A DNA stretch of 7,276 nt from a virus (lineage: Duplodnaviria; Heunggongvirae; Uroviricota; Caudoviricetes): IMG/VR virus record IMGVR_UViG_2671181114_000014; one strand, written 5' to 3'. Of the stretch, positions 2,396 through 5,392 are shown one piece after another. The notes below the pieces were generated by a model that saw only the letters and a list, made by a program, of their open reading frames with translations, ran no database searches and was not told the origin of the DNA. Position 1 is the first letter of the stretch; the number at the start of each line of letters is the position of its first letter. The position numbers were made by a program, and so were the translations under genes.

Positions 2396-3057
2396 ATATC
2401 TACGAAAGAATTGATGGCAGCAAATACCGAAATATTTGGGTAGCTGGCGACCTGCACGGATGCTACACGAACCTGATGAACAAACTGGATACGATTGGAT
2501 TCGACACCAAAAAAGACCTGCTCATCTCGGTTGGCGATTTGGTTGATCGCGGTACAGAGAACGTCGAATGTCTGGAATTAATCACATTCCCCTGGTTCAG
2601 AGCTGTGCGTGGAAACCATGAGCAAATGATGATTGATGGCTTATCAGAGCGTGGAAACGTTAATCACTGGCTGCTTAATGGCGGTGGCTGGTTCTTTAAT
2701 CTCGATTACGACAAAGAGACTCTGGCTAAAGTTCTTGCCCATAAAGCAGAAGAACTTCCGTTAATCATCGAACTGGTGAGCAAAGATAAAAAATATGTCA
2801 TTTGCCACGCCGATTATCCTTGTGATAAATACGAGTTTGGAAAGCCAGTTGATCATCAGCAGGTAATCTGGAACCGCGAACGAATCAGCAACTCACAAGA
2901 CGGGATCGTGAAAGAAATCAAAGGCGCGGACACGTTCATCTTTGGTCATACGCCAGCAGTGAAACCACTCAAATTTGCCAACCAGATGTATATCGATACT
3001 GGCGCAGTGTTCTGCGGAAACCTCACATTGATTCAGGTACAGGGAGAAGGCGCATGA
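2392..3057 (+). CDS. ninI: NinI serine/threonine protein phosphatase (lambda-PPase family metallophosphatase)
   Basis: 221-aa product with metallophosphatase motifs GDLHG, GDLVDRG and GNHE; near-identical to lambda orf221 as recalled. ATG 2392 overlaps ninG stop TGA 2393-2395. No ninH lies between ninG and ninI. Confidence 0.9.
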
Positions 3058-3143
3058 GACTCGAAAGCGTAGCTAAATTTCATTCGCCAAAAAGCCCGAT
3101 GATGAGCGACTCACTACTGGCCATAGTTTATTGGTTTTCGTAA
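3054..3143 (+). pseudogene. Q: Truncated lambda-type antiterminator Q (first ~20 codons only)
   Basis: ATG 3054 overlaps the ninI stop. Translation [20 protein letters not shown] matches the lambda Q N-terminus, then diverges (LLAIVYWFS*) with stop at 3141-3143. The break near 3113 coincides with a switch to AT-rich sequence. Confidence 0.7.
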
Positions 3144-3186
3144 CTGAGTCATTTTATTATTTTATTGCAACTTTTAATCTTTTATA

Positions 3187-3235
3187 GTGCGAAATAAATG
3201 GAGCTGGCATTCATTTCGCACTTTATGTTTTTGTT
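3187..3235 (+). terminator. Possible hairpin terminator after the Q remnant
   Basis: 9-bp inverted repeat GTGCGAAAT (3187-3195) / ATTTCGCAC (3213-3221) followed by TTTATGTTTTTGTT. The 17-nt loop is large for a canonical intrinsic terminator. Confidence 0.25.
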
Positions 3236-3268
3236 GGACTTATGTTATTTTGATTGAATTCAATTCAG

Positions 3269-4228
3269 TTAAAAAAAGAAGGTGATTGCTCCATTTATAA
3301 ATGAATAGTCATCCCCTGTCTTGAATTCTGATGTTACTTTATTAAATGCTAGTGTGAAGGCTACAGGTGCATACCCAATTGTTGCGCCAACTTGATATTC
3401 ATCAACAGTTTTGTTTAGCGATACTGTTGTTTGTTTCGTCTGTATTGTTTTTCCTTCGAGAGTATAGTTGCGATTGACATCTCGTCTTTCCATACCTGCA
3501 AAAATCTTGTATTTGAATCCGCTTGTATCGGACATATGCATTAAACCACGGGGAGCCAGCAGACCAAAGCCATTATCCGAATTGAAGGTTTTATCATTAC
3601 CAATGGCAATGGTTGCGCCATATGCTACATATTGAAATAAGTTTCCAGTAACAGCAGAAACTTCAGGGTATAATCCAACATTAGCACCTAAAATATCCAT
3701 ACTTGGTGTCATGGATAGCATCCCTTTTACAGTATAACCGTAGCGATTCTCTATTTGATCATCCCATGCATGATATTTTTCTGCCCCAATAATCTCATGA
3801 GCTTTATTTTGTACTTTCTGACCGCCTGCGTCGGGGCCAACAACACCTATGTCAGTACCTAATCGATAGCGAATCCAGTCATTCGCAAGGGAGTTCCATT
3901 CAATACCAGTGTGAGTGTATGCACTAAAAGCTCTGTCTCCAGTTACAGCTGTGTTGTGTCTTTTATTACTGCCTGATGGAGAGTAAATATCTTGCGCAAT
4001 ATGGAGAGATAATTGGCTCGAGTCTGAGATATCGTGGCTATATCCCAGAAATAAGCCTTGTGAGTAATCATCTCTGTTTTCATGTTTATTGCCATAAATA
4101 TCATTAAGTATTGGTTGAAACTTCCCTGCATCATCATTTGCTAATGATAATGCAAGGATGTTCGCGATAGCTGAACACGTGGTAAATGACAGAGCAATAA
4201 AGACGCCAGCGATGACACTTTTTTTCAT
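3269..4228 (-). CDS. lpxR: Outer-membrane lipid A 3'-O-deacylase, LpxR family
   Basis: 319-aa minus-strand ORF in AT-rich DNA with a Sec signal peptide (MKKSVIAGVFIALSFTTCSAIA, AxA site), beta-barrel-like composition and C-terminal Phe. Counting from the predicted mature N-terminus, N9, D10, S34 and H122 fall where I recall the Salmonella LpxR catalytic residues (N9, D10, T34, H122). SD AGGAAG lies upstream of the ATG. Confidence 0.7.
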   Translation of the reverse strand: MKKSVIAGVFIALSFTTCSAIANILALSLANDDAGKFQPILNDIYGNKHENRDDYSQGLFLGYSHDISDSSQLSLHIAQDIYSPSGSNKRHNTAVTGDRAFSAYTHTGIEWNSLANDWIRYRLGTDIGVVGPDAGGQKVQNKAHEIIGAEKYHAWDDQIENRYGYTVKGMLSMTPSMDILGANVGLYPEVSAVTGNLFQYVAYGATIAIGNDKTFNSDNGFGLLAPRGLMHMSDTSGFKYKIFAGMERRDVNRNYTLEGKTIQTKQTTVSLNKTVDEYQVGATIGYAPVAFTLAFNKVTSEFKTGDDYSFINGAITFFF

Positions 4229-4620
4229 ATGTTATTGTCTTCCTTTTTTTTGAATGGTGCGCGTATTTTACATACATGAGTTTGTAATACAAGGTGCGTA
4301 ATCAATATGATGTTTTATAATTGCGTGAGACAATTGATTTATTCGTTTTTTATTGCGGTTTTATTATCTTTTAATGTAACGGTGTTTTTATTAAGTGTGT
4401 TTGCGTGGTGTTTTATGTTTTTTATAATTTTTATTTTATTAAATTTAAATGCATTAGTAATGGCTATTCTATATAGCAATATAAGAACTGTTACAAAAAA
4501 AGGGGGGGCAATTACAGGTAGTTATGGATGATGAGTGAAACAGATATTGGAGAACCGGGGAATGAATGATGTCTGAGTCTTATATATCAGAACTCCTTCG
4601 CTGTCGCTGGGGGCTCCTGT
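4229..4620. promoter_or_regulatory. AT-rich intergenic region holding the lpxR promoter and the upstream region of the second Q-like gene; candidate H-NS-silenced region
   Basis: Visibly AT-rich with many T/A tracts, upstream of the minus-strand lpxR start at 4228. Contains an A7G7 homopolymer pair at 4496-4509. No specific -10/-35 assigned. Confidence 0.35.
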
Positions 4621-4702
4621 GCTTATGTCGTTTCCCCGATTCGGTTTTGAACGATTACCGAATGTTGAAGAATTATGCCAAAATATAGAAAGGATTTACT
4701 GC

Positions 4703-5392
4703 ATGAATACCCAATATTTACAGTATGTTCGTGAGCAACTTATGGCAGCTACTGCTGACTTGAACGGAGCAACGAAAGGCCAGCTCGAAGCCTGGCAGGA
4801 GCATGCACAATTTGATACTGGTACATACAAACGAAAGAAGCCGCGCATTCTGGATGTGGTAACTGGCAAGATGATTACGCTGGATAATACGCCGACTTCC
4901 GGTAAGCAGTCGTACGCAAAAGGTTCATCCATTGCTTTGGTCAGCCCGGTTGAATTCTCAACCTCTTCATGGCGCCGCGCGGTTTTGTCTCTCGATGAAC
5001 ATCAGAAAGCATGGTTGCTTTGGTGTTACAGCGAAAGCGTTCGATGGGGGCATCAGGTCACCATAACGCAATGGGCATGGAGCGAGTTTAAAGATTTGTT
5101 AAGTAACAGAAAAATTGCAGGTAAGACACTGGATCGCCTGAAGACGTTAATCTGGCTGGCTGCACAGGATGTGAAGAGCGAACTTGCAGGGCGTGAGGCC
5201 TATGAATACCAGACACTGGCATCATTGGTGGGAGTGACAACAAAAAACTGGTCCGAGACATTTACTGAACGCTGGGTTGCAATGAAGCACATTTTTCTAC
5301 AGCTTGATAGTGATGCTTTATTGCTTGTGACGAGAACACGTTCAAAACAAAAGGCAGCATTTTTACAGCAAAATATTGCAAAACTGGATTAA
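4703..5392 (+). CDS. Putative late-gene antiterminator Q, non-lambda type (probably type-2 / Q82-QuuQ-like)
   Basis: Long ORF ending TAA 5390-5392, after the nin genes and before a strong terminator and cargo/late genes. Size (229 aa from ATG 4703, 257 aa from GTG 4619) fits type-2 Q proteins. ATG 4703 has a good SD (AAGGA at 4690-4694, 8-nt spacer). Family call is positional and from memory. Confidence 0.55.
   Translation: MNTQYLQYVREQLMAATADLNGATKGQLEAWQEHAQFDTGTYKRKKPRILDVVTGKMITLDNTPTSGKQSYAKGSSIALVSPVEFSTSSWRRAVLSLDEHQKAWLLWCYSESVRWGHQVTITQWAWSEFKDLLSNRKIAGKTLDRLKTLIWLAAQDVKSELAGREAYEYQTLASLVGVTTKNWSETFTERWVAMKHIFLQLDSDALLLVTRTRSKQKAAFLQQNIAKLD

Follow-up and report, generated by a model that had tools for sequence, protein, structure and literature searches.

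Probable replacement of the body of a lambda-type Q gene by an lpxR island and a Q82-family late-control cassette in a phage 434-type lambdoid prophage

The DNA analysed here is a stretch of 7,276 nucleotides (nt) from the viral record IMGVR_UViG_2671181114_000014 (Caudoviricetes), and the whole of this stretch will be referred to as the window. At its center a lambda-type Q gene breaks off after a few codons and is followed by a cassette harboring lpxR and a second late-gene antiterminator. The surroundings correspond to a lambdoid nin-to-late region, with NinB, a Dam-type methylase, NinE, NinF, NinG and a NinI-type phosphatase, as identified with Pfam, encoded on the plus strand. The intact genes of the lambda-like nin region end with ninI, whose stop codon overlaps the ATG of the truncated Q open reading frame (ORF) in an ATGA motif. 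From ninI onwards the following features are found:

2392-3057, plus strand: ninI-type serine/threonine phosphatase gene (Pfam Metallophos; 96% nt identity with lambda nin221; same label in phage 434)
3054-3143, plus strand: Q' stub, the apparent 5' remnant of a lambda-type Q (ORF of 29 amino acids; lambda-homologous part 3054-3123 only)
3114-3124, no strand: left junction of the cassette, where matches to lambda, the prophage L009 and E. coli genomes end
3186-3240, plus strand: hairpin with a U-rich tail (14-bp stem with one mismatch; free energy about -16 kcal/mol)
3269-4228, minus strand: lpxR, predicted outer-membrane lipid A 3'-O-deacylase, intact and with a signal peptide (Pfam PF09982, E=2e-39, 136 bits)
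4229-4551, no strand: AT-rich region upstream of lpxR (28% GC, locally 22%), presumed to hold the lpxR promoter
4552-4569, plus strand: 3' remnant of rusA, about five codons plus stop (..E-P-G-N-E-stop), from alignment with phage 82 and E. coli A35
4566-4688, plus strand: ylcG-like small ORF (40 amino acids), homologous to orf45 of phage 82
4703-5392, plus strand: intact Q82-family late-gene antiterminator of 229 amino acids (PF06323, E=1e-91)
5376-5404, plus strand: late promoter pR' of the 82 type (TTGCAA at 5376-5381, 17-nt spacer, TATACT at 5399-5404), presumably starting transcription near 5411
5416-5424, plus strand: sigma70-dependent pause element TG-n-TATGTT, at +6 to +14
5438-5466, plus strand: intrinsic terminator tR' (9-bp stem followed by T8; free energy -12.5), also annotated as terminator in phage 434

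Over positions 133-6911 the window shares 99.8% of its nucleotides with coliphage 434 (OL657226), from which it differs by a few single-nucleotide polymorphisms and indels. The gene order is the same in both, with LpxR, a YlcG-like protein, a 'Q82-like' antiterminator and the terminator annotated among CPT_434_63 to _67. A prophage of E. coli O145 RM9872 is 100% identical over window positions 2400-6400, and identity over the 4 kb surrounding lpxR amounts to 99.3% in EDL933.

As had been noticed in the initial annotation, the ORF at 3054 begins with the N-terminus of lambda Q. Residues 1-20 of both proteins are identical (20/20), corresponding to 61-70 matching nucleotides, while the final six to nine codons of the stub and its stop codon derive from the island. 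The alignment with lambda (J02459) is perfect from the ATG of the stub through position 3114, includes seven of nine nucleotides up to 3123 and does not continue beyond, and the entire run from ninI to 3114 contains three mismatches, all within ninI. BLAST matches to lambda, to many lambda-type phages and to hundreds of E. coli prophages likewise end at 3121-3123. The stub match is the end part of 723 nt that align to lambda as one block (96% identity, E=0), which is far above chance. The left joint, located inside Q codons 21-24, is illegitimate, i.e. non-homologous.

A profile search of the stub returned no Pfam hit and in particular no PF03589 Antiterm domain, for which the best-matching stretch in lambda Q comprises residues 113-199. 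This domain, i.e. the zinc-ribbon and DNA/RNA polymerase-binding body of lambda Q (residues ~60-207), is absent from the stub, which consequently falls outside the lambda Q family and should be regarded as a gene remnant rather than a functional member. The 29-residue peptide, devoid of the functional domain, is most likely inert. Existing annotations are in line with a remnant: a GenBank note in OL657226 describes an antiterminator-like protein that is an N-terminal fragment of lambda Q, and RefSeq labels the stub as an incomplete antitermination pseudogene in enterohaemorrhagic E. coli (EHEC). Just past the stub, the hairpin at 3186-3240 resembles a terminator facing early rightward transcription.

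Beyond the left junction the base composition changes abruptly. The phage DNA of positions 1-3123 has a GC content of 49%, followed by 28% in the left flank of the island (3124-3268), 39% in the lpxR coding sequence (3269-4228) and 28% in the right flank (4229-4551). The earlier observation that identity to lambda gives way to AT-rich DNA is thereby borne out, with homology stopping at 3114-3123 and GC values of 28-39% thereafter, and the composition across the region confirms a sharp drop over the island.

The product of lpxR is predicted to be an enzyme of the LpxR lipid A 3'-O-deacylase family and aligns to LpxR from Salmonella Typhimurium (PDB code 3FID) with E=1e-152 and 74.2% identity over 295 residues. 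The active-site and calcium-site residues, which we take to be N9, D10, T34, H122 and E128 in mature Salmonella numbering (a set reportedly given by Rutten and co-workers in 2009), correspond to N31, D32, S56, H144 and E150 in the window protein, with a single exchange of threonine for serine. Thus the catalytic His/Glu and Asn/Asp residues are conserved with respect to Salmonella LpxR (74% amino acid identity) and to a Citrobacter protein (72%; L006). In contrast to the gene in the window, both of these lpxR genes are chromosomal, the Citrobacter one being located beside phoPQ/purB, and they are homologous in the coding sequence only, not in the AT-rich flanks. In a scan of genome contigs for a donor with LpxR, this Citrobacter gene beside phoPQ was the only one recovered, again with homology restricted to the coding sequence. 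A tblastn search of 50,697 phage records found lpxR in 434 and 434B alone.

The AT-rich segment 4229-4551 occurs in E. coli solely within the island, as judged by distant blastn, and a promoter scan detected promoter-like sites there at chance level only. Downstream of lpxR, the hairpin beyond its stop codon (3186-3240) lacks a U-run on the minus strand, i.e. the lpxR strand. The 4229-4551 segment also contains a very hydrophobic ORF of 74 amino acids (4307-4531, plus strand), which was rejected as spurious; it has no Pfam match and a GC content of 22-30%, is not annotated in 434 or RefSeq and is probably an artefact of T-rich DNA.

With 35.6% GC as compared to 49% in the flanking phage DNA, a position between phage modules and no phage function, the lpxR cassette has the characteristics of moron cargo, and lpxR is best interpreted as a candidate lysogenic-conversion gene. 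It is absent at the equivalent position in lambda, phage 82 and the prophage L009. Morons of lambdoid phages (a concept attributed to Juhala and Hendrix), such as bor and lom of lambda or those of HK97, are single cargo genes of deviant GC content that constitute their own transcription unit, are expressed in the prophage and are found between modules. The moron of the window, in contrast, has the remainder of a phage gene on either side and is physically linked to an exchanged regulator cassette. The IMG/VR contigs L065 and L066 contain, at positions 835-1794, a second and divergent lpxR (70% amino acid identity, homology again confined to the coding sequence), whose neighbours are fragments of IS3-family transposases and a gene resembling those for DUF4376 tail-fibre assembly. 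Here another phage appears to have acquired lpxR independently, at a different position in the genome.

Homology to phage 82 (rus-orf45-Q region) and to prophages with rusA-ylcG-Q starts around position 4552 (BLAST matches begin at 4552-4558). The first 18 nt of this homology are the end of rusA and overlap the ATG of the ylcG-like ORF. This internal junction at ~4551/4552 shows that the incoming block is itself composite. A longer rusA remnant was considered on account of the peptide 'TVTKKGG' encoded at 4487-4510, which resembles 'PVTKGG' of RusA, and was rejected; it requires a 26-nt insertion as well as a frameshift and has no BLAST support. The ylcG-like ORF ends with a TAG at 4686-4688, 14 nt ahead of the Q start. 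As orf45 of phage 82, on the contrary, overlaps the Q start codon (ATGA), translational coupling between ylcG and Q is predicted to be lost or altered in the window allele.

The presence of an intact but unrelated Q-like gene about 1.6 kb downstream of the stub, as proposed earlier, is substantiated in every respect: 1560 nt separate the stub stop codon from the Q start, and the product of 4703-5392 belongs to an antiterminator family, namely Q82. It scores 306.8 bits against PF06323 (cut-off 25) over profile positions 1-216 of 220 and aligns without gaps to Q of phage 82 with 203 of 229 residues identical (89%), while no similarity to lambda Q is detectable. Three Q families are recognised that are unrelated in sequence (PMC9388147). 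The 229-residue product is a member of the Q82 family and presumably active in antitermination and antipausing, for which the viability of phage 434, whose sole intact Q is the Q82-type gene, gives indirect support. No solved structure of a Q82-type protein was found in the PDB.

The late promoter, the pause element and the strong terminator tR' directly adjoin this gene. The 3' end of Q and the sequence through about +20 are conserved in four Q82-type loci and divergent beyond. For phage 82 pR' an extended -10-like pause inducer, a discriminator GCC at +15-17 and a pause at +25 have been described (PMC5001585), and the layout in the window fits this description. The pause element occupies +6 to +14 in both, and the tR' hairpin begins at ~+28. 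Over ylcG/orf45 and Q the two phages are homologous with 89.5% identity at the nucleotide and 89% at the amino acid level. Phage 82 differs from the window in having an intact rus gene upstream, no lpxR, the overlap of orf45 with the Q start, and GCC rather than GTA at +15-17. Within 3054-5392 Rfam returned a single weak STnc240-like match (E=0.56), which is the pR' leader plus terminator.

In order to map the exchange, E. coli Z1323HEC0067 (L009), in which a full lambda-type Q lies between the same flanks, was used as unswapped comparator. It aligns to window positions 1877-3123 with 97% and to 5439-6887 with 98% identity. Between these flanks L009 contains 672 nt, comprising the rest of the 207-residue PF03589 Q and a lambda-type pR'/qut, whereas the window contains 2315 nt (3124-5438), made up of the lpxR island, ~18 nt from the end of rusA, ylcG and the Q82-type gene together with the cognate pR' and pause element. 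Lambda itself and lambda-Q-type prophages such as L009 share the identical ninI-Q 5' end with the window, and L009 additionally shares the tR' terminator and downstream late-region genes. They differ in carrying the full-length Q with a lambda-type promoter and Q-binding element and in lacking lpxR, ylcG and Q82. The right junction at 5438/5439 coincides with the start of the shared tR' hairpin, where the homology to phage 2B8 also begins. As this joint lies in shared sequence, the crossover could have been homologous.

From these comparisons it is very likely that the locus belongs to a phage 434-type lambdoid prophage in which lambda-type Q codons ~24-207 together with pR'/qut were replaced by a foreign block spanning 3124-5438. 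The initial annotation had proposed a module exchange inside the 5' end of Q; L009 supports the exchange, and its extent has to be corrected, as the cassette does not end with the Q gene at 5392 and includes the late promoter and pause element up to 5438.

That the exchange supplied both lpxR and the new Q, as had also been suggested, is supported by their linkage. Among 5426 complete E. coli genomes the island is present in 622, and in 618-620 it is accompanied by both junctions. The ylcG-Q82-type allele is found at 99% identity or above in 618 genomes, at 90-99% in none and at 80-90% in 524. The whole island-plus-Q block is likewise found in 618 genomes, the same number as for the closely matching Q allele. 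In this collection the window Q allele therefore occurs only with lpxR, and because of the co-occurrence in about 618 of the 5426 genomes, island, stub and Q allele travel as one block, which is common in genomes of EHEC and enteropathogenic E. coli (EPEC).

The same stub junction is present in all 53 island-bearing IMG/VR contigs. Upstream of it two contexts are observed, ninI in ~30 contigs and ninH in ~23, the homology of the latter starting 11-13 nt before the ATG of the stub. Switching the block from one context to the other takes a crossover inside the ~83-nt stub segment, which is homologous to lambda-type Q phages, and we infer that this segment probably acted as a homology arm by which the block moved between ninI-Q and ninH-Q contexts. 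The other end of the block is less fixed. Two contigs, L040 and L043, correspond to window positions 1649-4693 and thus retain stub, lpxR island and ylcG; they diverge after 4693, and their Q belongs to PF06530 (Q21 family) and not to the Q82 type. Their crossover at the end of ylcG coincides with that of the laboratory variant 434B (OL657227), which has the same stub, lpxR island and ylcG and in which a DLP12-derived Q with nmpC and IS5 replaces the Q82-type gene via a crossover in ylcG. It appears that ylcG is a hotspot at which Q cassettes recombine. Three further contigs (L020, L054 and L063) diverge after 5425.

Several points weigh against the replacement as described. The discriminator at +15-17 (5425-5427) reads GTA in the window, in contrast to GCC in the three other Q82-type loci compared; in phage 82, changes from G/C to A at these positions shorten the pause two- to fivefold (PMC5001585), and details of Q loading could differ accordingly in the window phage. 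The rusA remnant provides only ~18 nt of clear homology. A donor with the island in another left context was not found in the collections searched, and the exchange may have comprised more than a single recombination event. Finally, the dependence on N and the terminator function of 3186-3240 assumed in the mechanism given below, the position of the lpxR promoter and the inertness of the stub are all inferred.

The order of events is the subject of the best-surviving alternative, according to which the locus arose in two steps: lpxR would have entered an 82-type phage as a moron at the rusA/ylcG boundary, and the resulting block would subsequently have been joined illegitimately to a lambda-type Q around codon 23, the reverse order being conceivable too. 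The internal junction at ~4551/4552 speaks for such a history, as it indicates a composite block and at least two non-homologous joints in total. An intermediate, i.e. the island next to an intact rusA or without the stub, is however missing from the 5426 E. coli genomes, the 50,697 phage records and IMG/VR. The two-step course is therefore considered a tentative option, with somewhat less than even chances, and it is a variant of the replacement rather than a contradiction to it.

The replaced arrangement suggests how the locus might operate. By analogy with lambda, N-antiterminated transcription from pR would during lytic growth proceed through the stub and the hairpin/U-tract at 3186-3240, continue antisense over lpxR and reach ylcG and Q82. 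The Q82-type protein would then load onto RNA polymerase paused near +25 at pR' and enable it to pass tR' and to transcribe the lysis and late genes. With the early operon switched off in the lysogen, lpxR could be transcribed leftward from a promoter in the AT-rich region, in EHEC under Pch/Ler control, and LpxR would deacylate lipid A as a lysogenic-conversion function. According to secondary accounts of Ogawa 2018 (PMC6393859, PMC9263587), lpxR of EHEC confers 3'-O-deacylase activity and its expression depends on Pch/Ler.

This topology could also be taken to mean that stub, plus-strand terminator and antisense lpxR are maintained by selection as a regulatory device, in which convergent transcription, of lpxR driven by Ler/Pch and of Q by N-dependent read-through, would couple virulence regulation to late-gene timing. 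Q82 is reachable only via ~1.4 kb antisense to lpxR and a hairpin/U-tract, and ~620 genomes show no variation of the arrangement, which a viable phage has retained as well. Yet at an identity of at least 99% this invariance reflects recent common descent and not demonstrated selection, and in L040, L043 (with a Q21-type Q) and 434B the island has been uncoupled from Q82 without obvious loss. Selection for such a device is accordingly judged unlikely. Equally little credence is given to its more specific form, in which Q82 expression would need an N-modified polymerase crossing the Ler/Pch-controlled lpxR, while the 83-nt stub would serve as a portable arm that spreads the block. If this were true, host virulence regulation and prophage late-gene timing would interfere with each other.

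It is considerably less probable still that a transposon or a site-specific recombinase inserted the island into an otherwise intact phage, although the low GC content and the sharp boundaries resemble a mobile insertion. The island contains neither a transposase or integrase ORF nor terminal inverted repeats, and no target duplication is found on comparing 3123/3124 with 4551/4552. The sole flanking direct repeat (12 nt with 11 of 12 identical, at 3098-3109 and 4527-4538) lies 15-25 nt off the junctions and is at chance level for 1.7 kb. Furthermore, the island is flanked by what remains of Q on one side and of rusA on the other, and flanks from two different genes indicate a replacement instead of an insertion. 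A chimeric assembly or a short match by chance, for which only the shortness of the stub could be adduced, can practically be dismissed, as identical junctions are present in the 618-620 complete genomes, the 53 viral contigs and the independently sequenced DNA of 434 virions, and the stub is the end of the 723-nt block shared with lambda.

With the replacement of the Q body by the 3124-5438 block as the preferred explanation, the locus represents ordinary lambdoid mosaicism with a moron and no new kind of element. The arrangement is already known, being annotated in GenBank (434) and RefSeq; the junction is not dealt with in the announcement of the 434 genome (Feiss et al. 2022, PMC9119081) and is covered by the GenBank feature notes only. 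At nucleotide resolution, the locus illustrates that lambdoid phages can exchange a regulator and its cis site (Q plus qut) jointly and gain virulence-modifying cargo in one block. The swap accounts for the observation that, in EHEC and EPEC, lpxR always has as neighbours a Q82-type Q and the pseudogene of a truncated 'antitermination protein'. For annotation purposes, the stub should be treated as a remnant and the PF06323 gene as the functional Q.

Downstream of the cassette, two plus-strand genes between tR' and a sialate-esterase ORF are late-operon cargo common to L009. They encode a multi-pass membrane protein of 252 amino acids without a Pfam family (5562-6320) and a DUF3927 (TciB-like) protein of 52 amino acids (6406-6564). 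An STnc100-like RNA (RF02076) is found at 6575-6779 on the plus strand with 41.4 bits and E=1.6e-6, below the gathering score of 47. It ends with a GC hairpin and a U-run and is positioned directly upstream of the esterase ORF starting at 6863. A preprint of 2026 (10.64898/2026.05.13.724894) describes PasD, an Hfq-bound small RNA of EPEC, as a structural homologue of STnc100, located directly upstream of the esterase in phage NC_049952 and with more than 98% of its copies within 10 kb of Q and LpxR. Because window positions 6560-6870 are 98.1% identical to NC_049952, the RNA is very probably PasD. The lpxR block, the Q82 allele and a nearby PasD-like small RNA co-travel in attaching-and-effacing E. 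coli.

Within the esterase gene itself (nanS-p-like, SASA family) 148 nucleotides are masked as N (6912-7059), where the corresponding gap in 434 amounts to 363 nt (L001, positions 8004-8368). This alters length and frame with respect to 434, and ORFs listed across 6912-7059 are therefore meaningless. At the opposite end of the window, positions 1-132 do not align to 434, the homology to which starts at 133, and match some IMG/VR relatives such as L028 (96% identity); the edge of this segment appears to be another mosaic boundary upstream of ninB.

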